A stretch of DNA of 64,000 nucleotides from Acidobacteriota bacterium (GTDB lineage: Bacteria; Acidobacteriota; Vicinamibacteria; Vicinamibacterales; CAVVIG01): positions 147,645 to 211,644 of the forward strand of contig QHWB01000034.1 of NCBI GenBank assembly GCA_003222395.1. The letters run 5' to 3'. The translations under genes and the position numbers were made by a program. The notes under the pieces were generated by a model that saw nothing but the letters and a program-made list of their open reading frames with translations, was not told the origin of the DNA and did not search any database. Of this stretch, positions 30,548 through 53,932 are shown piece by piece (positions within the stretch are counted from its first letter, which is position 1; the number at the start of each line of letters is the position of its first letter).

Positions 30548-30571
30548 CGGAACTCCTCTCCGTCGACCGCG

Positions 30572-30601
30572 CATGTAACAGGAGAAATGCAAGGCTGTCA
30601 A
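30572..30601 (-). promoter_or_regulatory. Promoter-like motif P3 (minus strand) related to P1/P2
   Basis: The minus strand reads TTGACAGCCTTGCATTTCTCCTGTTACATG. The first 9 nt are identical to P2 and most of the spacer is similar. An SD 'GGAGAGGAG' precedes ATG 30547. Confidence 0.35.
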
Positions 30602-30639
30602 CGGCAATCGGCGCGCGCCTGCGCTCGTGTTTCACGTGT

Positions 30640-33537: not shown

Positions 33538-33576
33538 GGAACGACCTTGTCCCGGAGCGCGCTTGCCTTGACGCAC

Positions 33577-33600
33577 GTAGCGCAGGCCCAACGGGCTGCG
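33577..33600 (+). terminator. Hairpin-family member downstream of the TBDR-like gene; candidate terminator
   Basis: 'gtagcGCAGGCCCaacGGGCTGCg' forms a ~9-bp stem with one bulge, 40 nt after the stop. There is no T-tract. Confidence 0.3.
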
Positions 33601-33636
33601 CGGATCGATAGCGCCCTCACGGCGGCGAGACCGCGT

Positions 33637-33933
33637 GCGGGCAACCCTCGCTCTGGCGCACCGTTCGACCGTCCGAACAACATTTACTCGCGTGGGGCCC
33701 CACCCCCACGCGCTGACGCCCTCGCGCCGTAGCGCTCGGGCGTATCCAGAACAGAACGTCACCGAGCCGTAAGCGCTTTGAGACGTCCTCGCGGCGTCAT
33801 GCTCTGCGTGGCGACGTTCTGTTCTTTATACGCGCGCGGGCAACGGCCCGCGCGCGTCAGCGCGGCGGGGGTGGGGCCCCGCCGCGTTAAGAAAATGACG
33901 GCTCAAGGTGCGCCAGAGCGAGGGTTGCCCGCC
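33637..33933. mobile_element. 297-bp MITE-like palindromic composite made of two inverted long copies (C, D) of the ~90-nt repeat
   Basis: Perfect 26-nt terminal inverted repeats: 'gcgggcaaccctcgctctggcgcacc' (33637-33662) and 'ggtgcgccagagcgagggttgcccgc' (33908-33933). The internal arms at 33673-33760 and 33814-33905 are inverted copies of the repeat, separated by a 53-nt spacer. No transposase and no clear target-site duplication. Confidence 0.5.
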
Positions 33934-34247
33934 CGCTCGCGCGACGCCTCCGAGTACGGTCACCTCGGCGACGCCGAGCGTCGTGGAGCGGCGGCGCGTC
34001 GCGCGCCTTCGAGCCGCCGGTCGACCCCCGATCGCTCACAACACGCGCCGTCAGGCACCACACGCGACCGCACGCCTGCGGTCGCGTACGTGGGTACACG
34101 TTGGAAAACATGATGCTGACGGCGCGTGTTGTTCCGACGGCGAGCGGCGCGCCAAGCGCCGCCGCTCCACGACGCGGCTCGGATCGCTGCGCGAGCTAGG
34201 TCAACGCAAGTGCCCTCCGAGATTAGAATGCGCACGGGAGTCGAACG

Positions 34248-36287
34248 ATGAATAGGGAAGACCGCCGGCTCGGCATGGATCGGTCGATCACGCGGCGCGA
34301 TTTCCTCAACGGCGTCGGCCTGACGGTCGTCGGGTCGATCCTCGCGCCGGAGCTCGCCCGCGCGGCGCAGACGGAACTGCACCCCAGCGCGCAAAATCCG
34401 CGCGCTTTGGACCCCGCATTCGCGCCCGAGCGCGCCGCCGATTACTACCCGCCGACGCGCACCGGCATGCGCGGCAGCCATCCGGGATCGTTCGAAGTCG
34501 CGCATCAGCTGCGCGACGCGCGGCAGTGGAACCTTTCTGGCGCGATCGAGACCGATGAATCGTACGACCTGGTGATCGTCGGCGGAGGGCTGAGCGGTTT
34601 GTCGGCCGCGTACTACTTCATCCGCGATGCGGGCCGAAACGCGAAGGTGCTCGTCCTCGACAATCACGACGATTTCGGCGGCCATGCGAAGCGCAACGAG
34701 TTTCATTACAACGGCCGCATGCTCGCGCTGAACGGCGGCACGCTGAACATCGAGTCGTGGAATCGCTACAACGAGCACGCGCGCTCGCTCATCACCGAAA
34801 TCGGCATCGACATCGATCGGTTTCTCGCGTCGAACCAGAAGAACCGCACGCTGTATGCGTCGCTGGGGTTGACCGGACAGGCGCTGTTCTTCGACAAGGA
34901 GACGTGGGGCGCCGACAAGCTCGTCGTTCGACACAGCGCAGGAGGAGGCGGACGAGGCGGCGGCTACAAGGGCGACGATGTGTCGCAGATGCCGCTGTCG
35001 CCCCAGGCGCAGAAGGACCTGCTGCGCCTCTATGGCGGCGCACATGCCGACTACATGCCGGGGCTGACGTCGGCGGAAAAGAAAGTCCGGCTCGCGAAGA
35101 TGAGTTATCAGGACTTTCTCCTGAATCTGGTCAAAGTCGACAAGCAGGTCGTCTGGTTCTTCCACAATCAAGGCGCCGGCAATTTCTGCGTCGGCGTTGA
35201 TTGCTATCCGGCGCTGTTCGGGTGGCAGGACGGACTGCCGGGATTCTCGGGGATGGATCTCGAGGCGAGCCCGAAAGGACTTCTCGCCGATCTGCCCGGC
35301 GGCCATCACGGACGGCAGATCGGACCGGGCGGCGGACCGACGGTGCATTTTCCGGACGGCAACGCGACAATCGCGCGGCTCCTCGCCCGATGGCTGATTC
35401 CGGGCGCGGTGCCGGGCACCTCGATGGAAGACGTCGGCGCCGCGCGCGTCGACTACGCCGCGCTCGATCGATCGGGGCAGACGGTCCGCGTTCGGTTGAA
35501 CAGCACGGTGGTGCACGTCGCGCACGACGGCGACGCGGCCCGCGCGAAGGAAGTCGTCACCAGCTACGTGCGCGGCGGCAGGACATATCAGGTGCGGTCG
35601 CGCGCCGTGGTGATGGCGTGCTGGAACTCGTTCATTCCCTACCTCGTGCCCGATCTGCCGGCGGCGCAGAAAGACGCGCTCGCCTTCGGCATCAAGGGGC
35701 CGCTCGTCTACACCAGCGTCGCGGTGAAGAACTGGACGGCGTTCCAGAAGCTCGGCGTCGCCTCGATCAACGCGCCGACGATGTACCACACGGGCGTGTC
35801 GCTTTCGGAGGCAGTCAGCCTCGGCGATCTGCATCACCCGCAGACCCCGGAAGAACCCGTCGTCCTGCACATGACGCGCTACCCGATGTCGCCCGGTAAA
35901 CCGCGGAAAGAGCAGCACCGAATGGGACGCGCCGACCTGCTGAGCACGACCTTCGAGACCTTCGAGCGCAAGATTCGCGATCAGCTGGCGCGAAATCTCG
36001 GCGGCGGAGGGTTCGACCCCGCGCGCGACATCATCGCGATTGCCGTCAACCGCTGGCCGCATGGTTACGCGTACACGTACAACCCGCTGTACGACCCGCT
36101 CGAGTGGGTCTACACCTCATCGAACGATCGGCCGTGCGTCAAGGCGCGGCAGCCTTTCGGCCTCATCACGATCGCGAACTCGGATGCCGCGGCGAGCCCG
36201 CATACCGACGCGGCGATGCTCGAGGCGCACCGCGCGGTTCAGGAAGTGCTGCAGCGTCGGGCGATGCCGCTGCTCACATCACCGTGA
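34248..36287 (+). CDS. Tat-exported FAD/NAD(P)-binding amine oxidoreductase, paralogue of 23676..25643
   Basis: 'SITRRDFLNGV' twin-arginine motif; 'YDLVIVGGGLSGLSAAYYF'; 'LDNHDDFGGHAKRNEF'. Collinear with the first copy along its length. Confidence 0.65.
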   Translation: MNREDRRLGMDRSITRRDFLNGVGLTVVGSILAPELARAAQTELHPSAQNPRALDPAFAPERAADYYPPTRTGMRGSHPGSFEVAHQLRDARQWNLSGAIETDESYDLVIVGGGLSGLSAAYYFIRDAGRNAKVLVLDNHDDFGGHAKRNEFHYNGRMLALNGGTLNIESWNRYNEHARSLITEIGIDIDRFLASNQKNRTLYASLGLTGQALFFDKETWGADKLVVRHSAGGGGRGGGYKGDDVSQMPLSPQAQKDLLRLYGGAHADYMPGLTSAEKKVRLAKMSYQDFLLNLVKVDKQVVWFFHNQGAGNFCVGVDCYPALFGWQDGLPGFSGMDLEASPKGLLADLPGGHHGRQIGPGGGPTVHFPDGNATIARLLARWLIPGAVPGTSMEDVGAARVDYAALDRSGQTVRVRLNSTVVHVAHDGDAARAKEVVTSYVRGGRTYQVRSRAVVMACWNSFIPYLVPDLPAAQKDALAFGIKGPLVYTSVAVKNWTAFQKLGVASINAPTMYHTGVSLSEAVSLGDLHHPQTPEEPVVLHMTRYPMSPGKPRKEQHRMGRADLLSTTFETFERKIRDQLARNLGGGGFDPARDIIAIAVNRWPHGYAYTYNPLYDPLEWVYTSSNDRPCVKARQPFGLITIANSDAAASPHTDAAMLEAHRAVQEVLQRRAMPLLTSP

Positions 36288-37723
36288 GCGCCGCGGACGC
36301 GAACATTGACGCCGTCGTCATCGGCGGAGGTCCTGCCGGATCGGCAGCGGCGCGGCTGCTGACCACGTGGGGGCACGACGTCGTCGTCCTGACGACGACT
36401 CCCGATCGGTCGCGCGGACTTGCCGAATCGCTTCCTCCGAGCACGCAGAGGGTTCTCGCGGAGGTCGGTGTGCTCGATGCCGTGGACGGCGCCGGCTTCT
36501 ATCGCTCGACGGGCAACACGTCCTGCTGGGCGTCGCGCGAGCGGCGCGTCGAGACATTCGGCTCGCTCGGTTACCAGATCTTCAGACCCGATTTCGATCG
36601 CCTGCTCCTCGACCGCGCGGCGGCCGCGGGCGCCGACGTGCGGGAAGGAACGCGCGTCGGCGCGGTCCGCGTCGCGGACGACGGCGTTCGCGTGGACTAC
36701 ACGCTGAACGGTCGCCCCTCGAGTACCTCGGCTCAACTGGTCATCGATTGTTCGGGAAGAGCGGGCGTCGTCGCGCGGCGCATGCGCAAGTACGAACCGT
36801 CATATCGAACGTACGCGATCGTGGGCGTCTGGCGCAGCGATGACGGCTGGGAGCTGTCCGACGAAACGCACACGGTCGTCGAAACGTTCGAGCACGGCTG
36901 GGCATGGTCGGTGCCGGTGGATCGATCGACGCGCCACGTTGGCGCGATGGTGGATGGTACGTCGCCGCGCGCGGCCACGGGCCGCGAGCTCGAGGCCGCG
37001 TATCGCGGCGAGATCGCGAAGACCGTCGAGATGCGCCGGCTGCTCGCCGGCGCCGGACTGCTGCGCGTGTTCGCCTGCGACGCGTCGCTGTATTCGTCGC
37101 GCGCCTACGCCGGACCGCGGTTCCTGCTCGCGGGCGACGCCGCATCCTTCATCGATCCGCTCTCCTCGTTCGGCGTGAAGAAGGCGCTGGCGTCGGCGTG
37201 GATGGCCGCGGTAACGGCCCACACATGCCTGCTGCATCCGGATCGCCGCCCGGTGGCGGTTGATTTTTTTTCGAACTGGGAGCGCCAGGTTTACGCCGCC
37301 AGCCTGAGGCATTCGCGCGATTTTGCACGCCAGGCATCGGAGCGGCATCCCCACCCATTCTGGGCGGCGCGCGCGGGAGTTGACGTACCACCGCAGGACG
37401 ACATGGACGCTCCGGACGTGCGCGCGGCATTCGAACGCATCAAAGGGGCGTCGTCGATCGCCTTCCGGCTCGCCGACGACGTCCGCCTGGAGAAAGCGGC
37501 GGTGATTCGGGACCACGAGATCGTCGTCGAGGATGCATTTCCGGGTATCCGGTTCTTCGAGAATGTCGATCTCGTGAAGCTCGCCCACATCGCCTGCCAG
37601 CACACGCGCGTGCCCGACGTGTTCGACGCGTATTGCCGCGCGCAGTCGCCGGCGCCGCTACCGTCCGTCATCGCGGGTTTGTGTCTCCTCGTGACCAAAG
37701 GAATCCTTCAGACGCGAGCGTGA
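36284..37723 (+). CDS. qhpG: FAD-dependent monooxygenase (flavin halogenase/geranylgeranyl-reductase-like fold); candidate QhpG
   Basis: GTG 36284 overlaps the upstream stop (GTGA). 'DAVVIGGGPAGSAAA' is G-x-G-x-x-G. 'LLAGDAASFIDPLSSFGVKKAL' is the G-D-A-x-x-F-x-D-P motif of this fold. It is the only such gene next to the qhp structural genes. Confidence 0.6.
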   Translation: MSAADANIDAVVIGGGPAGSAAARLLTTWGHDVVVLTTTPDRSRGLAESLPPSTQRVLAEVGVLDAVDGAGFYRSTGNTSCWASRERRVETFGSLGYQIFRPDFDRLLLDRAAAAGADVREGTRVGAVRVADDGVRVDYTLNGRPSSTSAQLVIDCSGRAGVVARRMRKYEPSYRTYAIVGVWRSDDGWELSDETHTVVETFEHGWAWSVPVDRSTRHVGAMVDGTSPRAATGRELEAAYRGEIAKTVEMRRLLAGAGLLRVFACDASLYSSRAYAGPRFLLAGDAASFIDPLSSFGVKKALASAWMAAVTAHTCLLHPDRRPVAVDFFSNWERQVYAASLRHSRDFARQASERHPHPFWAARAGVDVPPQDDMDAPDVRAAFERIKGASSIAFRLADDVRLEKAAVIRDHEIVVEDAFPGIRFFENVDLVKLAHIACQHTRVPDVFDAYCRAQSPAPLPSVIAGLCLLVTKGILQTRA

Positions 37724-37735
37724 GTATCTTGAATC

Positions 37736-37764
37736 TTGACACCTTACGGGCGGCGGCGTAGAGT
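37736..37764 (+). promoter_or_regulatory. Sigma70-like promoter upstream of the TBDR-like/qhp copy-1 unit
   Basis: TTGACA (37736-37741), 17-nt spacer, TAGAGT (37759-37764). An SD 'GGGGAGGG' precedes ATG 37852. Confidence 0.45.
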
Positions 37765-37851
37765 CGCGCGCAATTTCAATTTCGCGTCATCTCCCTCAAT
37801 TAATCGGCGACCACCGCGATCTTTCGTCTCTTCAAAAGCGGGGAGGGTTGT

Positions 37852-40611
37852 ATGAACCGGTTGTGTGCAGTCCTAGTCCTGCTGCTGGTCGTCGCGGTGG
37901 CCGCGCCGGCGGCCGCGCAGCGGACAACGGGCGAGATCTTCGGTAAAGTCGTCGACGAGAGCGGAAACATTCTGCCGGGCGTCACCGTCACGCTGCGTGG
38001 CGCGGGCGTCGCCGGAGCGCCAACCGCGGTCACCTCCGAGACCGGGACGTACCGGTTTCCCGTCCTGCCGCCAGGCACCTATAGCCTCGAGTACACGCTT
38101 CCCGGATTTGCGACACTGAGACGCGAAGCGATTCCAGTCGACGTCGGCGCGACCGTCGAGCTCGACGCGTCGATGAAGATCGGCGCCATCGAGGAGGCGG
38201 TGACGGTGACGGGCGAATCGCCCGTCGTCAACCTGTCGTCGTCGCAGGTGAGCACGGCCTACAACCACGAATGGGTGATGAACGCGCCCGTGCGGCGTTT
38301 CTCCTATTTCGATCTGATCAACTCCGCTCCCGGCGTGAGCGCGACCTCCAACGTCGGCCAGAGCACGGCGGCGCAGTCGTTGGGTAACAGCACCAACGAG
38401 AACTCCTATCAGATCGACGGCACCGACATCAGTTCGACGCCGTGGCCGAATACCGACGCGGTCGAGACGGTGGAAGTGCTGCAGCTGGGCGCATCGGCCG
38501 AGTACGGCAACGTGCAGGGCGCCGTCTTCAACATCGTCACGCGAATGGGCGGCAACGTCTTTCACGGCGACGCGAATTTCTACTTTCAGAATGACGCGCT
38601 CACCGGCCGGAACACCACGGACGCGGTCGACAAAGGGTTCCCGTATCACCGGGACAAGTGGCGAGACGCCACGATCCAGGCCACGGGTCCGTTCATACTC
38701 GACAAGTTCTGGTTCTTCGGCTCGTTGGAATACCAGCGGGACTGGGATTCACAACCTGGTACGGATCCGAAGTCGCCAGTGAAGAACGACTCGCGGCGTG
38801 TGTTCTGGAAGTTCAACTACAACATCACGCCGAACCATCGGCTGATGCATGGCTACCACAACGACTACTACTTCATTCCGGACATCACGTCCGAGTTCAC
38901 TGCGCCGAGCACCATTTCACTCAGCCATGGCGATAATCCGACGCCCAACCTTGTGTACACCGGTGTGCTGTCGGACAAAACGTTCATCGAGACGCGGTAC
39001 TCCGGTTTCTGGCTGCACAGCTCCAACGATCCGAACGAGTCCGGAGTCTCGCGCGTGCAGCCGCGATTGGAGGATCAGGACACCGGCTTCATCACGGGCG
39101 GCATCGGCCAATGGACCGAGAACCGGAGCTGGCGGTACGGCCTACAGACGAAGGTGTCGCATCTCACGGGGAACGTTCTCGGCGGTACGCACGAATGGAA
39201 GTCCGGCATTCAGTACGTCGGCCATGGCGCCGACACCGTCACCGGCAATAACGATCTCTATCTCACGTACAACGTCACGCACCGCCCGACCACGGGTACC
39301 ACGCAGTTGCCGTATCACGCGGGATCGATGGCTCGAGCGCTCGGCCTGTACGTCGACGACACGTACCGCGTGGGCAACGCCGTCATCAACCTCGGCGTAC
39401 GGTACGACTACAGCAAGGGACTGTTTCAGGCGCTTCCGTTCCTCGATGCGCAAGGGAATCCGACAGGGCTGATGTCGCCGGCCAACGATGATGTCTATCA
39501 CTGGAACACGGTCTCGCCGCGCGCCGGCATCAACTACAGAGTCAACAGCTCGGGAAGAACGCTGCTGAAGGCGCATTTCGGGCGGTATTACAAGCTGCTC
39601 GAAGCCTCGGAATTCCGGCCGGCGGTTCCGTCGGTCACGACGCTGAACACCTTCACGCTGGACTCTGCCGGCAACCGCACTAACATCGTGCCGACTGCCG
39701 CCGCGAACCTGCGCATCGATCCCAACTTCAAGTCGCCGTACAGCAACCAATTCATCGCGCAGCTCGAGCAGGAGTTGGTGGCCAATCTTGGTTTGCAGGT
39801 GAATTACGTTCACAAGTACGGACAGGACTACGGCGCCTGGCAGGACATCACCGGACAGTACGTGCAGGTGCCGTACGTTGACAATCTCGGAACCGGCGCG
39901 ACGGGCCAGACCGTCATGGTCTACAAGCTCACATCCAATGCAGCCGACCGGGTGTTCCTGCAAACGAATCCCGCCGGGATGTACATGCGGTACAACGGCG
40001 TCACGTTCATGGCGACCAAACGGATGTCGAACAACTGGCAGGGCGTCGTCTCGCTGGTGCTCTCGAAAGCGGAAGGGCGGCTCGCCTCCAGTGCAAGGTT
40101 CAGTCCGGTGACGTCGCAGAGCAGTCTGGCGACCTCTCCGAGCGGTTCAGCACAGTTCGGTCGCGAGACAGCTGGCCCCAACGACTTCGTCAACACGGAA
40201 GGGCGGCTCGTAGGCGATCGGCCCGTTGTGGCCAAAGCACAACTCGTGTACCGGTTCCCCTGGGGCATTCTCGCGTCCGGGAACTTACAGCACCAGACCG
40301 GCCGCTTCTACTCGCGCCAGGTGCGCGTCAGTGGACTCGGCTTCCCGGCCGCCGTTCAGATCAACATGGAGTCGAACACCGGCACGCGCCGCGTGGCCGC
40401 CGTCAATCTGTTCGATGCGCGCGTGCAGAAGGAATTCGCGCTGAACGGAAGCCCGATCAGGTTCGACGTCTTCATCGACGCGCTCAACCTGACCAACAGC
40501 GATCAGTACGAGTCGGTTGGATCGTCGCTCGGCACCTCGTCGGCGTTCGGCGTCCCGACGCGATACATCTCGCCGCGCCGAATGCAGCTCGGCGCGAAGA
40601 TTCGATGGTAG
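37852..40611 (+). CDS. TonB-dependent-receptor-like outer-membrane protein (carboxypeptidase-regulatory-like N-domain), qhp-linked copy 1
   Basis: Signal 'MNRLCAVLVLLLVVAVAAPAAAQ'; 'GVTVTLRGAGVAG…ETGTYRFPVLPPGTYSLEYTLPGF'; C-terminal 'RRMQLGAKIRW'. Confidence 0.8.
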   Translation: MNRLCAVLVLLLVVAVAAPAAAQRTTGEIFGKVVDESGNILPGVTVTLRGAGVAGAPTAVTSETGTYRFPVLPPGTYSLEYTLPGFATLRREAIPVDVGATVELDASMKIGAIEEAVTVTGESPVVNLSSSQVSTAYNHEWVMNAPVRRFSYFDLINSAPGVSATSNVGQSTAAQSLGNSTNENSYQIDGTDISSTPWPNTDAVETVEVLQLGASAEYGNVQGAVFNIVTRMGGNVFHGDANFYFQNDALTGRNTTDAVDKGFPYHRDKWRDATIQATGPFILDKFWFFGSLEYQRDWDSQPGTDPKSPVKNDSRRVFWKFNYNITPNHRLMHGYHNDYYFIPDITSEFTAPSTISLSHGDNPTPNLVYTGVLSDKTFIETRYSGFWLHSSNDPNESGVSRVQPRLEDQDTGFITGGIGQWTENRSWRYGLQTKVSHLTGNVLGGTHEWKSGIQYVGHGADTVTGNNDLYLTYNVTHRPTTGTTQLPYHAGSMARALGLYVDDTYRVGNAVINLGVRYDYSKGLFQALPFLDAQGNPTGLMSPANDDVYHWNTVSPRAGINYRVNSSGRTLLKAHFGRYYKLLEASEFRPAVPSVTTLNTFTLDSAGNRTNIVPTAAANLRIDPNFKSPYSNQFIAQLEQELVANLGLQVNYVHKYGQDYGAWQDITGQYVQVPYVDNLGTGATGQTVMVYKLTSNAADRVFLQTNPAGMYMRYNGVTFMATKRMSNNWQGVVSLVLSKAEGRLASSARFSPVTSQSSLATSPSGSAQFGRETAGPNDFVNTEGRLVGDRPVVAKAQLVYRFPWGILASGNLQHQTGRFYSRQVRVSGLGFPAAVQINMESNTGTRRVAAVNLFDARVQKEFALNGSPIRFDVFIDALNLTNSDQYESVGSSLGTSSAFGVPTRYISPRRMQLGAKIRW

Positions 40612-40696
40612 TGGACGGTCTTTAGACCGTCCCACACCGGCACGGTCTGAGACCGTGCCCACCGGAGGTCCCGAGGATACGAAGAGGGAGAATCTC

Positions 40697-41104
40697 ATGA
40701 CATATCTCAGAACCGCGGCCATCGCGCTCCTCGTCTTCGCCATCAGCGCGTCGGCGTTTGCCGGCGATTTGCAGGACAGCATCGCGAAAGCGGCGCAGCA
40801 ACAACAGCAGGAGGAACGGGCGCCGACGAGACACACGAACAAACCGCTGGTCTACACGGGTGCGGCACTGTTCGTCGGCGGCATGGCCGTCGGGCTGTTC
40901 TCGTTCATCAACAATAAGAACGGCTCCTTCTCCGAGTTCGGAGAAGCCAACGCGGTCAACAAGCCGCTCGGCGCCGCGGGTCTCGCCACGGCGTTCGTCG
41001 GCGGGACGATGATGTTCCTTGGCAGCCACAGAGCTAACACAAAAGCGCCGTCGGTCACGATTGGCGCGCGTCAGCTCAAGGTGGTCAAGCAATTGTCGTG
41101 GTGA
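40697..41104 (+). CDS. Small secreted/membrane protein of unknown function (135 aa; signal peptide, two Gly-rich hydrophobic segments, C-terminal …KQLSW), qhp-linked copy 1
   Basis: ATG 40697 with the SD 'GAGGGAG'. 'LLVFAISASAFA|GDLQDSIAKAA', Gly-zipper-like 'GAALFVGGMAVGLFSF' and 'GAAGLATAFVGGTMMFLG'. The stop is 4 nt before qhpA. A clear paralogue lies at 53933..54337. Confidence 0.7.
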   Translation: MTYLRTAAIALLVFAISASAFAGDLQDSIAKAAQQQQQEERAPTRHTNKPLVYTGAALFVGGMAVGLFSFINNKNGSFSEFGEANAVNKPLGAAGLATAFVGGTMMFLGSHRANTKAPSVTIGARQLKVVKQLSW

Positions 41105-41108
41105 CGCG

Positions 41109-42899
41109 ATGTTGAAACCAATTGGTTGTGTTCTGGGTGTGGTTCTCGCGGCGACGTTGGTGCCACGCGCCGTGGCCGATTCCTCTCAGGCACCGGCGAA
41201 TCGGGCCGCACAGACGGCGCAGCCGGGCGGCGAATCGAGAGGCGACGAAGGCATTCCGGTCACCAGCGATCTGGTCAAGCGGAAATGCGGCACCTGCCAT
41301 CTGCCCGACGAAAAAGGCCGGCTGTCGCGCATCTCGTACCGCCGAACGACTCCCGAGGGATGGGAGCAGACGATCAAGCGGATGATCACGCTCAACAACG
41401 TCCCTCTCGAGCCGGCCGAAGCGCGCGACATCGTGCGGTACCTCGCCGATCATCATGGGCTCGCGCCCGACGAGGCGAAGGCGGCGGCATTCGAGGTCGA
41501 GCGCCGGCTCATCGAATACTCATATCCCGGTGACAAAGACACCGAGCGGACGTGCAGCACGTGTCACTCGATGGGTCGTGTTGTCGCCCAGCGGCGCACC
41601 AAGGAAGAGTGGACGCTGCTGTTGGAAATGCACCGCGCGATTTATCCAGGCACGGATACCGTGTTCCGGCGCGGTCTCGGCCAGCGCCGCGGAGGCGCGC
41701 CGCAGTCGGGCGCGCCGCCGGAAGACACCAGACACCCGATGGACCGGGCGATCGAACATCTCTCGTCAACGTTCCCGCTCACGACTGCGGAATGGGCGGC
41801 GTGGTCGGCGACCATGCGGCCACCGCAGCTGCAGGGGCGATGGGCGCTCGCCGGTTATCAACCGGGCCGCGGTCCGGTATTCGGACAAGTGATCGTCAGC
41901 AATCAGGGCGATCCGAGCAGCGGTGATTTCACGACCGAAACCACTTTTACGTACGCGCGCGGGGGACAGACCGTGACGCGCCGCGGCCGCGGTCTCGTGT
42001 ACACGGGGTTTCAGTGGCGCGGCCGATCGAGCGGCGACGGAACGCCGTTCACGATCCCGGGCGTCAGCACCGACTGGCGGGAAGTGTTGTTCGTCGATCG
42101 CGAGTGGCGGAGCGCCGAAGGCCGTTGGTTCACGGGCGGATACAACGAACTGGGGCTGGATGTGCGGCTGCGACGCGTCGGCGCCGATCCGATCGTCCTC
42201 GGCGTCGCCGAGCCGATGATCAAGGCCGGCGTCTCGCAACAGGAGCTGCACCTGTACGGCGCGAACCTTCCGGCAAGTCCATCGCAAGCGGACGTGAACT
42301 TCGGCCCCGGCGTCACGGTCGATCGCATTGTCAGCTCGACGCCGACGCAGATGGTCGTGTCGGTGTCGGTCGCGCCGGGCGCGGCGGTCGGACGGCGCGC
42401 CGTCATTCTTGGCGGCGCCACCGGCGAGGCGGACGTGGCCGTCTACAACACGATCGACTACATCAAAGTGCGTCCGCAGGCCGGCATCGCGCGGCTGGGC
42501 GGCGCGGCGCAGTTCCCGAAGGGATTTCAACAGTTCGAAGCGATCGCGTACGCGAAAGGACCCGACGGAAAGGCCGACACGAAAGACGACGTCGAGCTCG
42601 GACTGATCGACGCGTACTGGACGCTCGAGGAGTACACGGCGACGTTCAACGACGACGACAAGGAGTTCGTCGGCGACATCAACGCCGAGACGGGACTGTT
42701 CACGCCGAACGTCGACGGTCCGAACCCGAAGCGGAGACACAACGCCAACAACTACGGCGACGTCTGGGTCGTGGCCTCGTATCCCCGCAGTCTCGCGATG
42801 AACCGCGGATCGAACGTGCGATCGGTCAAGGGGCGCGCGCACCTGCTGGTTACCGTTCCGGCGTACATCCTCTTCGAACAACCGGAGGTCGGCAGATGA
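41109..42899 (+). CDS. qhpA: Quinohemoprotein amine dehydrogenase alpha subunit (diheme cytochrome c plus beta-barrel domains), copy 1
   Basis: Signal peptide; two C-x-x-C-H sites ('KCGTCH', 'TCSTCH'); 'LSRISYRRTTPEGWEQTIKRM' and 'IVRYLADHHGLAP' match my recollection of the QHNDH alpha heme-binding domain. Confidence 0.85.
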   Translation: MLKPIGCVLGVVLAATLVPRAVADSSQAPANRAAQTAQPGGESRGDEGIPVTSDLVKRKCGTCHLPDEKGRLSRISYRRTTPEGWEQTIKRMITLNNVPLEPAEARDIVRYLADHHGLAPDEAKAAAFEVERRLIEYSYPGDKDTERTCSTCHSMGRVVAQRRTKEEWTLLLEMHRAIYPGTDTVFRRGLGQRRGGAPQSGAPPEDTRHPMDRAIEHLSSTFPLTTAEWAAWSATMRPPQLQGRWALAGYQPGRGPVFGQVIVSNQGDPSSGDFTTETTFTYARGGQTVTRRGRGLVYTGFQWRGRSSGDGTPFTIPGVSTDWREVLFVDREWRSAEGRWFTGGYNELGLDVRLRRVGADPIVLGVAEPMIKAGVSQQELHLYGANLPASPSQADVNFGPGVTVDRIVSSTPTQMVVSVSVAPGAAVGRRAVILGGATGEADVAVYNTIDYIKVRPQAGIARLGGAAQFPKGFQQFEAIAYAKGPDGKADTKDDVELGLIDAYWTLEEYTATFNDDDKEFVGDINAETGLFTPNVDGPNPKRRHNANNYGDVWVVASYPRSLAMNRGSNVRSVKGRAHLLVTVPAYILFEQPEVGR

Positions 42900-44374
42900 T
42901 CACGCTGGCGCCTCGCGAGTTCCACCTGTTCCAGGCGGCGGGCCGCGATTTCCTGTACCTCGTGCCGAGCGCGGCGATCTTCGCGCTCGACGACATCACG
43001 TCGGCCGTGCTCGCAGCCGTAACTGAAACGAAACGTACCGAGGCCGCCGTCGTCGACGCGCTCGCCGAACGGTTCGACGGCGCCACGGTTCACGAAGCCG
43101 TTGCCGACCTCCTGGCCGTCCGCGCGATTGGGTACGAGCACGAGCCCGAGTCGCGCACGCCGCGAGTGCTCCCGTTGATGCCCGCATCGTTGAGCACCGG
43201 GCGGAGCGGCGTCATCCCGCTCACGACGATGGTGATGAACGTCACGAACCAGTGCAACCTGGCGTGCACGTACTGCTATGAGTACGGCGAGGACAAGATC
43301 GTCGACACCGAGCACGGCAAGAAACCGAAGTTCATGTCCGAGCAGACGGCGCGCGAAAGCGTCGAGTTCCTGCTCAGGGAAAGCGGCACCGTTGCGCATC
43401 TGACGTTCTTCGGCGGCGAGACGCTGCTCAATTTTCCGGTGCTGCAATCGACCGTGGCTTACGGCCGGCGGCGCGCCGCGGAGCTCGGGAAATCGATCGA
43501 CTTCAGCCTCACGACCAACGCCACGCTGCTGAGACCGGAGATCATCGAGTTCCTCGTGGAGAACGACGTCGGCGTCACGATCTCGATCGATGGTCCGCGC
43601 GAGATGCAGGACAGGTTCCGCGTCTTCCACAACGGCGCCGGCAGCTACGACGTCGTCGCGCCGAAGATCAAGGAGCTGTTGAAACGGCATCGGAGCAAGC
43701 CGATCGCCGCGCGCGTCACGTTGACGTCGGGCACGCTCGACATCACCCGCATCTATCGCCATCTGACCGAGGAGATTGGCTTCGGCGAGGTCGGATTCGC
43801 GCCGGTCACGACGTCTCCCGGTCAGGGGTACGCGATCGGCGAGCGTGGGTTCGATACCATGCTCGCGCAGTTCCGCGCGCTCGCGCAGGAGTGGCTCGAG
43901 TGCAGTCTCGCGAACCGGCATCACGGCTTCTCGAACGTCACCGAATCGCTCGAAGAGATTCACAAGGGCGTCAGCAAGGCGTATCCGTGCGGCGCTGGTC
44001 TGGGTCTCCTGGGAGTGTCGACCGACGGCGACGTCGCGTTGTGTCATCGGTTCGCGGGATCGGACGCGCACAAGCTGGGCACGGTGCGCGACGGCGTGGA
44101 TCGCGATGCGCAGGTCGCCTTCCTCGAGCGGAATCACATCGCCGACAAAACCGACTGCAGCAGGTGCTGGGCGCGTCCGTTGTGCTCCGGCGGCTGCTAT
44201 CACGAAGCGCACGTGCGCTACGGCACGACGACGCATCCGAATCTTCACTACTGCGAGTGGATTCGCGGATGGACCGACACGTGCCTGCGGCTCTACGGTG
44301 AATTGTCCGAGCGAAACCCGGCGTTCCTGGCCCGGTTCGATCGAGAGGAAGCGAAGGCGGAGGCGGTGGTGTGA
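42896..44374 (+). CDS. qhpD: Radical SAM/SPASM peptide maturase for the gamma subunit (QhpD), copy 1
   Basis: ATGA overlap with qhpA. 'NVTNQCNLACTYCYEYG' is C-x3-C-x2-C. The C-terminal SPASM cysteine cluster is 'CGAGLGLLGVSTDGDVALCHRF…CSRCWARPLCSGGCYHEA'. Confidence 0.85.
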   Translation: MITLAPREFHLFQAAGRDFLYLVPSAAIFALDDITSAVLAAVTETKRTEAAVVDALAERFDGATVHEAVADLLAVRAIGYEHEPESRTPRVLPLMPASLSTGRSGVIPLTTMVMNVTNQCNLACTYCYEYGEDKIVDTEHGKKPKFMSEQTARESVEFLLRESGTVAHLTFFGGETLLNFPVLQSTVAYGRRRAAELGKSIDFSLTTNATLLRPEIIEFLVENDVGVTISIDGPREMQDRFRVFHNGAGSYDVVAPKIKELLKRHRSKPIAARVTLTSGTLDITRIYRHLTEEIGFGEVGFAPVTTSPGQGYAIGERGFDTMLAQFRALAQEWLECSLANRHHGFSNVTESLEEIHKGVSKAYPCGAGLGLLGVSTDGDVALCHRFAGSDAHKLGTVRDGVDRDAQVAFLERNHIADKTDCSRCWARPLCSGGCYHEAHVRYGTTTHPNLHYCEWIRGWTDTCLRLYGELSERNPAFLARFDREEAKAEAVV

Positions 44375-44375
44375 C

Positions 44376-44399
44376 GCAGCCCTGAAGGGCTGCGCTACC
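44376..44399 (+). repeat. Hairpin-family member in the 39-nt qhpD1-qhpC1 spacer
   Basis: 'GCAGCCCtgaaGGGCTGCgctacc', a 7-bp perfect stem. It starts 2 nt after the qhpD stop and sits just before the SD 'AAGAGGAG' of qhpC. Confidence 0.5.
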
Positions 44400-44413
44400 A
44401 AGAGGAGTAACAC

Positions 44414-44746
44414 ATGCGTCATCTCAAACCGATCAATCAAAAGGCTGGCCGCGTCGTCGACTTCGTGGCGAATCAGAAGCACGACGTCGTCGCGCTGCAG
44501 CAGCCGCCGTTCCGGCCGCATCTTCCGCTGGGATGCACCTCCCTCTTCTCGCCCGGCTGGGAAGCGGATCAGGCGGGCGGGACGGCCGGACTCTGCACGC
44601 CCGTCGAGCGCGACATCTTCGACTGTCACATCAGCTGCTTCTGGCCGGCGCAGGTACCCGACATGCTGAATCACTCGCCCGACTGGACGGGCAAGTGCGC
44701 CGCCGCGCAGAAGGACTGGCGGAAGATCGATCTCGTGTTCCCGTGA
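44414..44746 (+). CDS. qhpC: Quinohemoprotein amine dehydrogenase gamma subunit precursor (CTQ / thioether cross-linked peptide), copy 1
   Basis: 110 aa. The core 'GCTSLFSPGWEADQAGGTAGLCTPVERDIFDCHISCFWPAQVPD' has Cys, Glu, Cys, Asp, Cys, Cys, Trp, Asp at relative positions 0, +9, +20, +26, +30, +34, +36, +42. As I recall, this is the Cys7/Glu16/Cys27/Asp33/Cys37/Cys41/Trp43/Asp49 pattern of the characterised gamma subunits. Confidence 0.85.
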   Translation: MRHLKPINQKAGRVVDFVANQKHDVVALQQPPFRPHLPLGCTSLFSPGWEADQAGGTAGLCTPVERDIFDCHISCFWPAQVPDMLNHSPDWTGKCAAAQKDWRKIDLVFP

Positions 44747-44787
44747 GCGCACGCCAGCCGGACCGCTTGAATCGGGAGATCAATGAC

Positions 44788-45942
44788 ATGTTGAAGCGCG
44801 TTTTGTCGGGGGCAGTACTTCTCGCGGCTCTCTTCACGCTCGTTGCCGCAGCGCCCGCGAAGCTCACGGGCGGCAACGGCACCTTGTACATCGGCGGATG
44901 GCCGAACAGGATCTTCGTCATCGACGAGGCGACCGAAAAGGTGACAGGCACCATCGAAGTCACCACGGCCGGGCCGCCGAAGGGCGGTCCTCCGCGATCG
45001 ATGGTGCTGTCGAAGGATCGCAAGCGGTTCTATCTGACGAACTCGCTCGAGCAGGTGGAGATCCTCGACGCCGCCGCGCGCAGGAGCATCGATCACTTCT
45101 CGATGTCCGAAGGGCCGAACAAGCGGACGTACATCCGCGGAATGGTTCCCGATCCGCTCGATCGCTTCCTGATCATGGTTCTGAAGGTCGTCGAGAAGAA
45201 GATCGACCGGTACGAGGTCGGGGCTCCGAAGATGGTCGTCTACGATCTGAAGGAGCACAGGATCGCGCGCACCATTCCCTGGCCGAACAACGAGGAGCGC
45301 GAGAACGTCAACGTGATGTTCTCGCCCGACGGCAAGCTGCTGTACTTCTTCGCCGACGACGTGCTGATCTACGACACGACCGATTTCAAGCAGGTCGACA
45401 CCTGGGAGCTCTCGCGGCCGATCGAGGAGGGGTTCGGCCGCTTCGACTTCGGCCCGCGCGACACGACCTACGAAGAGCCTGGCTACTACAGCGGCATCTT
45501 CACGACCAGGGATCCGATCCAGAACCGCGACATCATGGGCGTCGCGCGCGTGAACCTGACAGCCAAGAGCTTCGACTTCTGGCCGATTGGGCCTGCTGTG
45601 CAGCTTCCCGTCGGAGCTCGGCCGGTGAGCTTTTCGCTCGCGCCGGATCGCAAGCGCGCCTACGGACTGCTGCAGGAGATCGGCCGCTACGAGTTCTGGA
45701 CGTTCGATCTCGACCGCCACAACGTGGCCAAGACGGAATTCGACGGCCGTCCGCGGATGGCATTGCGGACCAGCACCAACGGCAAAATCCTGTACATCTA
45801 TCAAGCCGGCAATACGATCGACTTCTACGACGCCGCGAACTACAAGTACCTTCGCACCCTGACGCTCGATGCCGACGAGACGACCGATCTCATCGTCGTC
45901 CCTGCTGAAACCGGCCGCACGACGTCTTCCTCGCAGCACTGA
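44788..45942 (+). CDS. qhpB: Quinohemoprotein amine dehydrogenase beta subunit (beta-propeller), copy 1
   Basis: ATG 44788 with the SD 'GGGAGA'; signal peptide 'MLKRVLSGAVLLAALFTLVAAAPA'. Repeated strand motifs typical of YVTN-like propellers. Position after qhpC matches the canonical qhpADCB order. Confidence 0.75.
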   Translation: MLKRVLSGAVLLAALFTLVAAAPAKLTGGNGTLYIGGWPNRIFVIDEATEKVTGTIEVTTAGPPKGGPPRSMVLSKDRKRFYLTNSLEQVEILDAAARRSIDHFSMSEGPNKRTYIRGMVPDPLDRFLIMVLKVVEKKIDRYEVGAPKMVVYDLKEHRIARTIPWPNNEERENVNVMFSPDGKLLYFFADDVLIYDTTDFKQVDTWELSRPIEEGFGRFDFGPRDTTYEEPGYYSGIFTTRDPIQNRDIMGVARVNLTAKSFDFWPIGPAVQLPVGARPVSFSLAPDRKRAYGLLQEIGRYEFWTFDLDRHNVAKTEFDGRPRMALRTSTNGKILYIYQAGNTIDFYDAANYKYLRTLTLDADETTDLIVVPAETGRTTSSSQH

Positions 45943-45980
45943 CGAACGACGGGGGCCGGCACGGCGGCCCTCGTTCGTTT
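45942..45980 (+). terminator. Intrinsic-terminator-like hairpin after qhpB copy 1
   Basis: 'ACGAACGAcggGGGCCGgcacggCGGCCCTCGTTCGTtt': 14 bp of pairing with a 3-nt bulge, followed by TT(T). Confidence 0.5.
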
Positions 45981-45997
45981 CCGCGCCGCCTCTGATT

Positions 45998-46102
45998 GCG
46001 GACGCTCGCCTGAAAGGCTCGCGCTACCGTCGGCGGACGCTCGCCTGAAAGGCTCGCGCTACCGTCGGCGGACGCTCGCCTGAGAGGCTCGCGCTACCGT
46101 CG
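45998..46102. repeat. Tandem repeat, 3 x 35 bp
   Basis: 'gcggacgctcgcctgaaaggctcgcgctaccgtcg' occurs at 45998-46032, 46033-46067 and 46068-46102. The third unit has one substitution (a to g). The unit resembles a degenerate member of the small hairpin family (…cctgaaagg…gcgctacc). Confidence 0.9.
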
Positions 46103-46190
46103 ATCGACCGGCCATGCCGCTGCTGAACAGTTGACGAACGGATTTCCGAACGCGCTTCCAACAAAATCCTGTAAGCGGCCGCGCGCAGCC

Positions 46191-46219
46191 TTGACAGGAG
46201 CACACACCGCGCGTAACGT
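46191..46219 (+). promoter_or_regulatory. Sigma70-like promoter upstream of the TBDR-like gene, copy 2
   Basis: TTGACA (46191-46196), 17-nt spacer, TAACGT (46214-46219). An SD 'GGGAGGAG' precedes ATG 46310. Confidence 0.4.
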
Positions 46220-46309
46220 GCGCAAAGCTTTCAAGTTTCATCTAAGGTGACAGTGCTCTCTTCTGGGGTCCAATCTCACGGTCCTGAACGATTTCAAGGG
46301 AGGAGCAGC

Positions 46310-49222
46310 ATGCGGCGAGGCGCGATCGTCTTCGGACTCTTGGTGCTGGTCCTGGTGTCGGCAGCAGCCCCGGCACGCGCGCAGCGAACCACGGGAGAGA
46401 TTGTCGGCGTCGTGACCGACGAATCGAACCTCGTTCTGCCGGGCGTCACGGTGACGCTTCGAGGCCCCGGCGTCGCCGGCACGCCGACGGTCGTCACCAG
46501 CGAAACCGGCGCATACCGTTTTCCGGCGTTGCCACCCGGAGAGTACACGATCGAGTACACGCTTCAGGGCTTCGCGACGCTGAGGCGCGAGAACATCCCC
46601 GTCGGCGTAGGCGCGGTCATCGAGCTGAACGTTCCACTGAAGGTCAGCACGCTGAGCGAGACGGTGACCGTGACCGGCGAATCGCCGGTGGTGAACCTGG
46701 CGTCGACGACGGTGAGCACGAACTACAACAAGGAATGGGTCGCGGCGGCGCCGATCAGACACTTCTCGTTCTTCGATCTCGTCAACTCCGCGCCTGGCGT
46801 GAGCGCCACGTCGACGCTCGGCTCGAACTCTTCAGCGACCACGCTCGGGAGCACGACGAACGACAATGTGTACGCGATCGACGGCACCGATCTGTCCGCA
46901 CCGATCGGCGGCGGCGCCTGGCCGTGGCCGAACGCCGACGCGATTCAGGAAGTCGAGGTTCTGCAGTTGGGCGCTTCAGCCGAGTACGGCAACGTCATGG
47001 GCGCCGTCTTCAACGTCGTGACCCGCCAGGGCGGCAACCAGTTTCACGGCGACGCGACGTACTACGGGCAAACCCAAAAGCTGACGAGCCGCAACACGAC
47101 GGTTGCGCAGGAATGCCTCGGCGTATCGGACTGTCCGTCAAGTGGCCTGCCGTATCACCGCGATCAGTGGCGAGATACCACGGCCCAACTGACGGGTCCG
47201 TTCGTCCGAGACAAGTTCTGGTTCTTCGGATCGTTCGAGTATCAGAACGACTTCGATTCGCAGCCCGGTACCGATCCGTCCGCGCCGGCGAAGTCGACGT
47301 CGCGGCGCGTGTTCTACAAGTTCAACTACAACATCACGCCGAATCACCGGCTGATGCACGGCTATCACAACGACTACTGGGCCTTCCCGGGAGTTCCGAC
47401 AGCCTCCATCGCGCCGAGCGCCGTTGCGCTGTTCCACGGCGACAACCCCACGCCGAACCTGGTGTACACCGGCGTTTTGTCGAGCAAGACGTTCGTGGAA
47501 GCGCGTCTGGCCGGCTATTACGGAAAGGATTCCGGCGATCCGTTGCTTCCCGGTGAGCCGCGCGTCAAACCTCACATCATCAACCAGGATACGGGCCTGA
47601 TTAGCGGCGGCATCTCGTCCTGGGACGATGAGAAGGTATGGCGCACCGGCGTCAGCGGGAAGATCTCGCATCTTGCCGACAGGTTTTTGGGTGGCAGCCA
47701 CGATCTGAAGCTCGGCGTGCAGTACAGCACCGGCGGCCAGGACAGCGTCACCGGACCCAACGACTACCTCTACATCGTCGGCGGACGGCAGTCGTATGGC
47801 TACACACGTTTGCCGTGGCACGCGGGCGGACTCATTCGGATCCTCGGAACGTACGTCGACGACACCTACCGCCTCGGAAATACGTTCACGTTCAACCTGG
47901 GATTGCGGTACGACCATAGCCAGGCGCTCTATCCGTCGTTCCCGGTCCTCGATGCGTCAGGGAATGCCACCGGACAGGTCTCTCCCGGTAATGACGACGT
48001 GTATCACTGGAACGTGGTATCGCCGCGAATCGGTGCGACCTGGAAGGTGAACCAGGCAGGCAAGACCGTCGTCAAGGGCTACTACGGACGCTTGTATCGC
48101 GGAATCCTGCTCGCCGATTTCACCGACGCCAATCCGTCGGTCACCCCCAGGTTCATCTTCGACATCCTGCCTTCGGGTGCGCGCACGAACTTCGACGTCG
48201 TCAGCAGCAACACGAATCTGACGATCGATCGCGGTTTCAAGGATCCGTACTCGCACGAAGCGATCGTTCAGATAGAACAGGAGATGATGCCGAACCTCGG
48301 GCTGCAGGTGAACTACGTCTACAAACGCGGATACGACTACGGCGGCTGGCAGGACACCGGCGGACGTTATTCGCAGGTACCGTATGTGGACAGTGCGGGC
48401 ATCGACGCGAGTAACAGAACACTACAGCTGTTCAGCCTACTGACGCCATTCAGTCAGAGCACGTTTCAGATGACGAACGTGCCGGGGCTGTTCAGCAGAT
48501 ACAACGGAATGACGATCACAGGCACGAAGCGGATGTCGCACAATTGGCAGGGAACGCTTTCTCTCGTGGTGTCCAAATCCGAAGGACGCGAGCCCTCGAG
48601 CACGCGAAGCCCGGCGACTGCTCAATACGGCACGTCCGGAGGCTTCGGGCGGATCGGATGCGGCAGTCCATGCGCCGGCGGTCAGAACGACTTCATCAAC
48701 ACGGATGGCCTGCTGCTCGGCGATCGTCCGGTCGTGGCGAAGGCGCAGGTCATCTACAACTTCCCCTGGGGGATTCTGGTCTCGGGCAACCTGCAGCATC
48801 AGACGGGCCGCCCGTGGGCGCGCCAGATCCGCGTGGCCGGATTGGGATTTCCGAGCCGGCCCACGATCTATATGGAGCCGCTCGATGGCAGCCGGCGGCT
48901 GCCGGCGTTGGATCTGGTCGACGCGCGGGTGCAGAAGTCGATCCCGCTCGGGCGCCCTGGCGTGTTTCTCGATCTCTTCATCGATGCGCTCAATCTGACG
49001 AACAGCGACTCAACCGAGAACGTCCTGAGCCGGCGCGGCGATCAGCCCGATACGTTCGGCGTGTGGTCCGGGGCGGACACGTTGGTCCGCCCCTACCTGT
49101 CTATTTCGGCCAATCGATCACGGGCGGCACTGAATCCCGCATTCAATTCGAGAGTCTTCCGAAAGTACGGCGCCGCTTCTGATGCGCGGTGCTCGCGCTG
49201 GAGCGTGAGCCCGAGATTGTAG
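46310..49222 (+). CDS. TonB-dependent-receptor-like outer-membrane protein, qhp-linked copy 2 (aberrant C-terminus)
   Basis: Collinear with 37852..40611; most of the first ~150 mature residues are identical by eye. Where the paralogue ends '…AKIRW*', this gene reads '…SANRS' and runs on for 33 more codons into the convergent gene. Confidence 0.7.
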   Translation: MRRGAIVFGLLVLVLVSAAAPARAQRTTGEIVGVVTDESNLVLPGVTVTLRGPGVAGTPTVVTSETGAYRFPALPPGEYTIEYTLQGFATLRRENIPVGVGAVIELNVPLKVSTLSETVTVTGESPVVNLASTTVSTNYNKEWVAAAPIRHFSFFDLVNSAPGVSATSTLGSNSSATTLGSTTNDNVYAIDGTDLSAPIGGGAWPWPNADAIQEVEVLQLGASAEYGNVMGAVFNVVTRQGGNQFHGDATYYGQTQKLTSRNTTVAQECLGVSDCPSSGLPYHRDQWRDTTAQLTGPFVRDKFWFFGSFEYQNDFDSQPGTDPSAPAKSTSRRVFYKFNYNITPNHRLMHGYHNDYWAFPGVPTASIAPSAVALFHGDNPTPNLVYTGVLSSKTFVEARLAGYYGKDSGDPLLPGEPRVKPHIINQDTGLISGGISSWDDEKVWRTGVSGKISHLADRFLGGSHDLKLGVQYSTGGQDSVTGPNDYLYIVGGRQSYGYTRLPWHAGGLIRILGTYVDDTYRLGNTFTFNLGLRYDHSQALYPSFPVLDASGNATGQVSPGNDDVYHWNVVSPRIGATWKVNQAGKTVVKGYYGRLYRGILLADFTDANPSVTPRFIFDILPSGARTNFDVVSSNTNLTIDRGFKDPYSHEAIVQIEQEMMPNLGLQVNYVYKRGYDYGGWQDTGGRYSQVPYVDSAGIDASNRTLQLFSLLTPFSQSTFQMTNVPGLFSRYNGMTITGTKRMSHNWQGTLSLVVSKSEGREPSSTRSPATAQYGTSGGFGRIGCGSPCAGGQNDFINTDGLLLGDRPVVAKAQVIYNFPWGILVSGNLQHQTGRPWARQIRVAGLGFPSRPTIYMEPLDGSRRLPALDLVDARVQKSIPLGRPGVFLDLFIDALNLTNSDSTENVLSRRGDQPDTFGVWSGADTLVRPYLSISANRSRAALNPAFNSRVFRKYGAASDARCSRWSVSPRL

Positions 49223-51117: not shown

Positions 51118-51186
51118 GGAGACACCGAGAAAATCAGACGGCGCGATCGCAAAGCGCGCAGAGAGTGAACGCCGATCGGTTCGGCG

Positions 51187-51275: not shown

Positions 51276-51348
51276 CTCCGGTCGCGCGCGGCGCTCCGCG
51301 CCGCCGCCGAACCGAGGCGTCTCTGCACCTCTGTGTCTCCGTGGTTGG

Positions 51349-53922: not shown

Positions 53923-53932
53923 AGGAGACACC

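Follow-up and report, generated by a model that had tools for sequence, protein, structure and literature searches.

A TonB-dependent transporter gene and a small-protein gene in a predicted quinohemoprotein amine dehydrogenase operon of a Vicinamibacterales soil bacterium

Can genes for a transporter and for a small protein be regular parts of an operon for a periplasmic amine dehydrogenase? The question is raised by a 64-kb stretch of contig QHWB01000034.1 (the window; all coordinates are positions within it), in which seven co-directional open reading frames (ORFs) on the + strand span 36284-45942 in the order qhpG-like gene, TonB-dependent transporter (TBDT) gene, 135-aa ORF (small135), qhpA, qhpD, qhpC and qhpB (Table 1). 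The spacers measure 128 nt (qhpG/TBDT), 85 nt (TBDT/small135), 4 nt (small135/qhpA), -4 nt (qhpA/qhpD), 39 nt (qhpD/qhpC) and 41 nt (qhpC/qhpB). The original prediction, made from the sequence alone, had described a quinohemoprotein amine dehydrogenase (QHNDH; EC 1.4.9.1) gene set in an Acidobacteriota-like host. All seven ORFs, their strand and positions and the ATGA overlap of qhpA and qhpD were present as described, and family models, gamma-subunit residues and the beta-subunit fold upheld every gene assignment. A second qhp cluster starts approximately 10 kb downstream and is referred to as copy 2, the cluster at 36284-45942 being copy 1. The nearest genome loci are in an Acidobacteria gp6 metagenome-assembled genome (MAG; 80% identity for QhpA) and a Vicinamibacterales MAG (75%); in a soil metagenome fragment (L030) small135 is identical and the flanking TBDT and QhpA ends are 98-99% identical. 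Judged by these relatives, the host is a Vicinamibacterales (Acidobacteriota) soil bacterium, in line with the host proposed earlier. We read the locus as a functional Vicinamibacterales QHNDH locus in which the TBDT and a predicted 135-aa membrane protein are now fixed operon parts, and give this reading a probability of about 70%.

Family calls were made with the curated cut-offs of NCBIfam and with Pfam scans. QhpA scored 467.6 bits with TIGR03908 (QH_alpha; cut-off 274), contains all four alpha-subunit Pfam domains above cut-off (PF09098, PF14930, PF09099 and PF09100) and has an N-terminal hydrophobic signal and two CxxCH motifs (C60, C149), as in a dihaem cytochrome c type protein. QhpD scored 555.7 bits with TIGR03906 (quino_hemo_SAM; cut-off 453). 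Its CX3CX2C motif reads CNLACTYC at residue 120 and, together with eight C-terminal cysteines, fits a SPASM-domain enzyme; the SPASM model was not among the Pfam matches, and the best NCBIfam models are radical S-adenosylmethionine (SAM)/SPASM maturases. QhpC scored 128.7 bits with NF037958 (QH_gamma; cut-off 50), a Pfam gamma domain was also found, and a leader of about 34 aa precedes the core with the cysteine tryptophylquinone (CTQ) and thioether residues. An alignment of these residues had been named beforehand as a check on the prediction. The core aligned without gaps to the solved gamma chains 1JJU_C and 1JMX_G, with all seven cross-link and CTQ residues kept: the thioether pairs C41/E50, C61/D67 and C75/D83 correspond to Cys7/Glu16, Cys27/Asp33 and Cys41/Asp49 of 1JJU_C, and the CTQ pair C71 and W77 to Cys37 and Trp43. 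A fifth invariant gamma cysteine (KCAAAQKDW; Cys95 in QhpC1, the QhpC of copy 1) was observed in all Acidobacteriota and Longimicrobiales QhpC proteins of loci L001-L028 and in the window, and is absent from both solved proteobacterial gamma chains; its thiol may stay free, enter a disulphide or form a fourth cross-link.

Family models, another check proposed with the prediction, were passed by QhpA, QhpD and QhpC, and QhpG and QhpB stayed below their cut-offs by the amounts given further below. For QhpB, a profile of 17 relatives matched the solved beta chains in the PDB (1jmx_B, 5.5e-9; 1jju_B, 4.3e-7, the latter at full length). The top PDB folds for its AlphaFold2 (AF2) model (predicted local distance difference test, pLDDT, 78.5) were again 1jmx_B (E=7e-18) and 1jju_B (E=7e-17), with template modelling (TM) scores of 0.63 and 0.71, respectively, and other propellers were at least four orders of magnitude behind. 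The gene also occupies the canonical slot, 3' of qhpC. Because both the profile and the modelled fold favour the solved beta chains, QhpB is, on these models, a real but divergent QHNDH beta subunit, a homologue by fold and synteny that lies outside the equivalog model. Among the public relatives listed, those of QhpB with a name are mostly labelled 'hypothetical protein' and otherwise carry generic beta-propeller labels, and the QhpB and small135 relatives that bear NCBI names are proteins of Vicinamibacterales or Acidobacteria MAGs. The QhpG-like protein has the Pfam domains FAD_binding_3 and Trp_halogenase and an N-terminal GxGxxG motif, and a qhpG homologue adjoins qhpA or the TBDT gene in many relatives. 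Since family models, the seven gamma residues and the beta fold point the same way, 36284-45942 is predicted to encode a genuine QHNDH cluster.

The linkage of the two additional genes was surveyed by scanning metagenome contigs with a small135 profile and mapping the neighbours by tblastn, which gave 80 loci. The two closest genomes have the arrangement G-TBDT-small135-ADCB, as do long metagenome contigs, and seven metagenome places, reached via three small135 homologues, keep (G)-TBDT-small135-ADCB. Of the 68 loci whose flank is long enough, 67 have a gene like that of the window TBDT (TBDR_c) directly upstream of the small135 gene, and qhpA starts within 500 nt downstream of the small135 gene in 50 of 60 informative loci; small135 is more closely linked to the TBDT than to qhpA. 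The linkage persists down to 44% small135 identity (range 44-100%) and down to 51-65% TBDT identity; across syntenic relatives TBDT identity is 82-92%. The module precedes enzymes of the A1 type as well as of the A2 type (for example TBDT-small135-A2D2C2B2-ABC in L084), and in L100 and L101 qhpADCB-F is on the opposite strand yet still adjacent to TBDT-small135. Conversely, qhp clusters without a TBDT gene, from Bryobacterales and others, are also without small135. The presence of a TBDT-like and a 135-aa gene between the qhpG-like gene and qhpA, on which the original prediction had based its claim of novelty, was thus confirmed and found to recur in relatives with strong conservation. As the linkage holds across divergence, enzyme types and orientations, these loci indicate that TBDT-small135 is a conserved, lineage-specific addition to the qhp operon. 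One could suppose instead that one of the many Acidobacteriota TBDT genes landed between qhpG and qhpA as a neutral accident, since the window alone has four TBDT genes of the CarboxypepD_reg type and variation in the order of qhp genes has been described (PMC7876137). Linkage at this depth of divergence, with two QHNDH paralogue types and in rearranged orientations, largely refutes such an accident, which we regard as most improbable.

The transporter is assigned to the TBDTs by domains and motifs: CarboxypepD_reg (65 bits), Plug PF07715 (25.7; cut-off 23.9) and OMP_b-brl_4 (101; cut-off 30) were detected, a signal peptide and a TonB-box-like EEAVTVTG precede the plug, and the C-terminus (...KIRW) ends in Trp. 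The small135 protein had no Pfam or NCBIfam family above noise. Its 488 homologues (90% clustering) are 'hypothetical protein' in every informative label, three having dissimilar automatic JGI names; only 145 representatives were present among 1.84 billion 50% clusters, nearly all of 125-150 aa. Conserved features are a signal peptide ending in AFAGDL, an amphipathic stretch or helix, two Gly-rich hydrophobic helices with the invariant loop FINN.NG.F.EFGEANAVNK between them, and a C-terminal beta-hairpin ending in W (here) or F. This terminal aromatic residue is kept in remote members and is reminiscent of an outer-membrane-protein signal. The protein shares only the Gly-rich hydrophobic helix pair with Glycine-zipper 2-TM/SlyB-like proteins; membership of that group was rejected, as PF05433-type models were unmatched and there is no Cys, so no lipobox.

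The position of small135 allows it to be read as a partner of the enzyme, serving QHNDH as a tether, assembly factor or electron-transfer docking protein, with the TBDT adjacency secondary. Its stop codon lies 4 nt from the qhpA start, while the gap to the TBDT gene measures 85 nt and contains two hairpins, and qhpA follows in most loci. On the other hand, small135 stays with the TBDT almost without exception, including the two loci with qhpADCB-F on the other strand, QHNDH clusters lacking the TBDT lack small135 as well, no Cys or His that might hold a redox cofactor is conserved in the alignment, and the C-terminal aromatic may point to the outer membrane. We therefore hold a role of small135 in the enzyme itself to be unlikely.

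In the reading of copy 1 as a functional locus, qhpA, qhpB and qhpC are predicted to encode the dihaem alpha, propeller beta and CTQ-bearing gamma subunits of a periplasmic amine dehydrogenase, and qhpD (radical SAM) and qhpG (flavin monooxygenase) the putative cytoplasmic maturases of gamma. By analogy with the Paracoccus pathway, QhpD would form three Cys-to-Asp/Glu thioethers in gamma, QhpG would hydroxylate gamma Trp77, dihydroxylating the CTQ precursor Trp, QhpE would cleave off the leader and QhpF would export gamma, with alpha and beta reaching the periplasm by the Sec pathway. The assembled enzyme would convert primary amines to aldehyde and ammonium, and electrons would pass via the two haems to a periplasmic carrier. 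For the TBDT and small135, conserved synteny suggests that they may bring the amine substrate over the outer membrane for QHNDH; the overlapping gene for a spermidine dehydrogenase (SpdH) homologue and the nearby genes for gamma-aminobutyric acid (GABA) transaminases and a PuuR-like protein make polyamines, or products of their cleavage, possible substrates in this genome. A dedicated TonB-energised uptake of amines or polyamines that feeds periplasmic QHNDH, and here also SpdH, is our tentative proposal for these two genes, and we put it forward with less than even confidence.

The TBDT might instead import another cargo (haem or iron for alpha, a metal, a cofactor or an unrelated nutrient) and be merely co-regulated with amine oxidation. 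TBDTs are classically importers of metal chelates or cofactors, and the weak NCBIfam matches of TBDR_c are to FepA-type receptors, spanning only about 50 residues. PqqU imports a quinone cofactor (PMC12124388). CTQ, on the contrary, is protein-derived (PMC7876137), so that QHNDH requires no imported organic cofactor. Rfam searches at the gathering threshold (entire window) and at E<=1 (33400-46400) gave no match and hence no riboswitch hinting at a TBDT ligand, and nothing iron-related is found among the genes at 36284-45942. Of the four CarboxypepD_reg-type TBDT genes in the window, three have a periplasmic oxidoreductase gene as a neighbour (a pyrroloquinoline quinone (PQQ)-dependent dehydrogenase, SpdH and QHNDH), as expected if each periplasmic catabolic enzyme had its own importer. 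A cargo other than the substrate of the enzyme seems improbable to us on this balance.

Several observations weigh against the interpretation developed so far. QhpB reached only 57.5 bits with TIGR03907 (cut-off 223.2), in a full-length match with E=1e-15, and the QhpG-like protein 236.5 bits with NF049967 (cut-off 240; E=5e-70, model positions 2-407 of 423), the next-best NCBIfam family of the latter having only 155.7 bits. A phmmer search of the PDB with the TBDT gave no match at E<=0.01. The AF2 model of small135 shows the conserved layout at a low overall pLDDT of 61 (about 80 in the helices), and in 10 of the 60 informative loci no qhpA lies directly downstream of small135. Small amines normally pass porins, and a TBDT is not obviously needed for them. 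Only the window and L031, its closest relative, have the SpdH gene next to qhpG; the other syntenic loci lack it, so that the polyamine link is local and not a property of the module. Further copies of qhpE, qhpF or qhpG could be present beyond the 64-kb window.

Table 1. Positions of the genes and other sequence features in the window.
Feature	Position	Strand	Remarks
qhpG-like flavin adenine dinucleotide (FAD) monooxygenase	36284-37723	+	GTG start; GTGA overlap with stop of upstream gene
TonB-dependent transporter (TBDT, TBDR_c)	37852-40611	+	
small135, 135-aa protein	40697-41104	+	
qhpA, QHNDH alpha subunit	41109-42899	+	
qhpD, radical-SAM/SPASM thioether maturase	42896-44374	+	ATGA overlap with qhpA
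qhpC, gamma-subunit precursor, 110 aa	44414-44746	+	
qhpB, divergent beta subunit, secreted beta-propeller	44788-45942	+	
qhpA2	56405-58147	+	NCBIfam 455.7 bits; 51% identity to copy 1
qhpD2	58144-59574	+	NCBIfam 568 bits; 70% identity to copy 1
qhpC2	59571-59900	+	NCBIfam 127.7 bits; 72% identity to copy 1
qhpB2	59906-61018	+	NCBIfam 70.1 bits; 56% identity to copy 1
qhpF-like ABC exporter, fused permease and ATPase	61015-62814	+	Pfam ABC_membrane and ABC_tran
qhpE, subtilisin-like leader protease	62820-63479	+	NF049966 (QH_SP) 174.3 bits, cut-off 165; Pfam Peptidase_S8
SpdH homologue, flavoprotein with twin-arginine translocation (Tat) signal	34248-36287	+	PDB 7D9F/7D9I, E=3e-131, full length; RRDFLNG motif
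Sigma-70-like promoter match, TTGACA-17-TAGAGT, qhpG/TBDT spacer	37736-37764	+	
Two stable stem-loops, TBDT/small135 spacer	40611-40660	+	26-nt repeat; fold z-score -3.3
G+C-rich stem-loop with UUU tail after qhpB	45943-45980	+	
Three tandem 35-nt hairpin repeats after qhpB	45998-46102	+	

The gene set of copy 1 had been called complete. This applies to qhpG and qhpADCB; qhpE and qhpF were not found at 36284-45942 and sit with copy 2, in which no qhpG was found. The accessory genes are consequently split within the window, with G in copy 1, F and E behind copy 2 and an own qhpD in each copy. The sequence of QhpE has motifs compatible with an Asp/His/Ser triad, and an ABC exporter gene is syntenic 3' of qhpB in 10 of the 29 tabulated genome-scan and context loci. 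An assembly duplication as the source of the two copies was rejected because their proteins are only 51-72% identical. With qhpE and qhpF only behind copy 2 and qhpG only in copy 1, the two paralogous clusters must, going by the gene content of the window, share accessory enzymes. The leaders of QhpC1 and QhpC2 have the motifs HLKPIN.KA.RV and DVVALQ in common, which means that QhpE and QhpF of copy 2 could act in trans on QhpC1. A related locus (L023, 11183-16005) has qhpG between two qhp copies, the second of which is organized as A2-42aa-C2-B2 with a 42-aa ORF in the place of qhpD; this copy implies use of the copy-1 QhpD and supports sharing in trans. QhpD, QhpE and QhpG are single-turnover enzymes (PMC7876137) and, combined with the split set, this implies coordinated expression of both clusters. 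The alternative that copy 1 is a decaying duplicate, unable to mature without its own qhpE and qhpF, and that active enzyme comes from copy 2 only, takes its appeal from their absence in copy 1 and from the loss of qhpD in one of the two copies of L023. It appears very unlikely to us, because all copy 1 ORFs are intact with conserved haem, radical-SAM and cross-link residues, genes of the copy-1 type keep 75-99% identity between independent genomes and metagenomes, which indicates purifying selection, and the shared leader motifs would let copy-2 QhpE and QhpF serve QhpC1. An AraC-family regulator (qhpR) was not found among the 38 window ORFs scanned; the sole regulator found in these ORFs is the MerR/HTH/cupin PuuR-like protein at 16422-17300.

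Compared with the qhpADCBEFGR genes of Paracoccus denitrificans and Pseudomonas putida (structures 1JJU and 1JMX), the window has the same A-D-C-B core order, structural genes and dihaem alpha subunit, genes of the QhpD, QhpG, QhpE and QhpF types in common, and identical CTQ and three-thioether residues in gamma. It differs by the TBDT and small135 genes between qhpG and qhpA, by accessory genes split over two clusters, by the lack of qhpR among the scanned ORFs, by a beta subunit too divergent for the TIGR03907 cut-off, and by a gamma with a leader of about 34 instead of 28 aa and an extra invariant Cys. The order (G)-A-D-C-B-F-E is the ordinary one in Bryobacterales, other Acidobacteriota and a Longimicrobiales MAG (L003-L019). 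Copy 2 (A2-D2-C2-B2-F-E) follows it, the proteins are 50-77% identical to those of these plain clusters and the gamma has the same five Cys. The plain clusters are without TBDT and small135, and their qhpG is usually directly upstream of qhpA, whereas in the window it accompanies copy 1. With substrate-specific TonB-dependent uptake loci for non-iron nutrients (SusC-type polysaccharide utilization loci; PqqU for PQQ) the window has in common a TBDT gene, its product with a CarboxypepD_reg-type N-terminus, beside the genes of periplasmic enzymes that would use the cargo, and a small partner gene directly downstream; the partner in the window is a 135-aa protein with two hydrophobic helices instead of a SusD-like lipoprotein.

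More than 1300 species are reported to have a qhp operon, and the order of its genes varies (PMC7876137). Of the non-canonical order claimed by the original prediction, the TBDT/small135 insertion is the new part, variable qhp order as such having been reported already. Surveys of Acidobacteria MAGs have listed QHNDH genes before, although no characterised QHNDH enzyme from Acidobacteriota was found in the literature searched. Full-text searching yielded no publication tying QHNDH to a TonB-dependent transporter, and no precedent for amine cargo of a TBDT was present in the literature searched. The enzyme is a new member of a known family; what is new in the operon is its arrangement, with the conserved TBDT/small135 module and the divided accessory set. 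QHNDH biogenesis is a model for protein-derived cofactors, in which three maturases are single-turnover (PMC7876137), and splitting the maturases over two clusters raises the question of their stoichiometry and co-regulation. The conservation of a TBDT gene among amine dehydrogenase genes suggests active amine import by Vicinamibacteria, which are abundant in soil, followed by oxidation in the periplasm. If amine import by a TBDT holds true, it would bear on soil nitrogen turnover, add a hitherto undescribed substrate class to the TBDT cargo range and introduce a novel type of small TBDT partner, and it would explain scavenging of nitrogen-rich cations by oligotrophic soil Acidobacteriota. An annotation gap is also apparent, the listed relatives of the beta subunit and of small135 being mostly labelled 'hypothetical protein'.

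Upstream of copy 1, the gene for the SpdH homologue overlaps the qhpG start with its stop. Its product is a full-length homologue, with a Tat signal, of Pseudomonas aeruginosa SpdH (PDB 7D9F-7D9J), an enzyme that converts spermidine to 1,3-diaminopropane and Δ1-pyrroline (PMC12564564); the gene lies outside the conserved TBDT-qhp module and is found there only in the window and L031. An SpdH paralogue (49% identical, also with a Tat signal) is encoded at 23676-25643. The region 16422-23679 contains genes for the PuuR-like regulator, two GABA-type class-III aminotransferases (one GNAT-fused) and an APC-family permease, and together with the SpdH genes it looks like a polyamine/GABA catabolic island. 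Another TBDT gene (27779-30607, - strand) lies 11 nt upstream of a PQQ-dependent dehydrogenase gene (25731-27767, - strand; PF01011, 579 bits, full-length), which makes it the second transporter gene paired with a gene for a periplasmic quinoprotein. This context supports TBDT import followed by periplasmic oxidation and suggests polyamine-derived amines as candidate substrates here. In L023 (1-2850), homologues of window 12203-14014 and 13794-14642 are directly upstream of TBDT-small135-qhpADCB, from which it follows that the window holds about 23 kb of extra amine-related genes at that position (14600-37800).

No small135 paralogue was found behind any of the three other TBDT genes. The fourth TBDT gene of the window (TBDR_d, 46247-49222) encodes a protein 58% identical to TBDR_c and is also located 3' of qhpB in L031. 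Its C-terminal part of about 50 aa is without homology and overlaps a convergent sulfatase-tetratricopeptide repeat (TPR) gene by 130 nt; this tail may be a frameshift or a mis-called end.

Among the putative regulatory signals, the promoter match in the qhpG/TBDT spacer was the sole one in 13 kb, with 1.3 expected by chance, and is hence weak. The terminator-like hairpin predicted after qhpB is present as a stem-loop at 45943-45977; its tail consists of UUU only, and a terminator scan did not call it. A hairpin at 44377-44399, between qhpD1 and qhpC1, is related to the tandem repeats after qhpB and, like their units, ends in GCGCTACC; a regex search found no copies of the GCGCTACC hairpin repeat in about 0.8 Mb of related loci. 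No credible ORF was seen in the 710-nt spacer that separates the TBDT gene TBDR_b from the SpdH gene. This spacer contains a near-perfect hairpin of about 340 nt (33615-33955; minimum free energy -236 kcal/mol, z=-15), as well as a second, nested inverted repeat (33978-34175). The hairpin had no Rfam match and is single-copy within the window; it may be an element resembling a miniature inverted-repeat transposable element (MITE) or a structured RNA. Further downstream, at 49093-53955 on the - strand, two tandem genes encode sulfatase domains fused to long TPR arrays.

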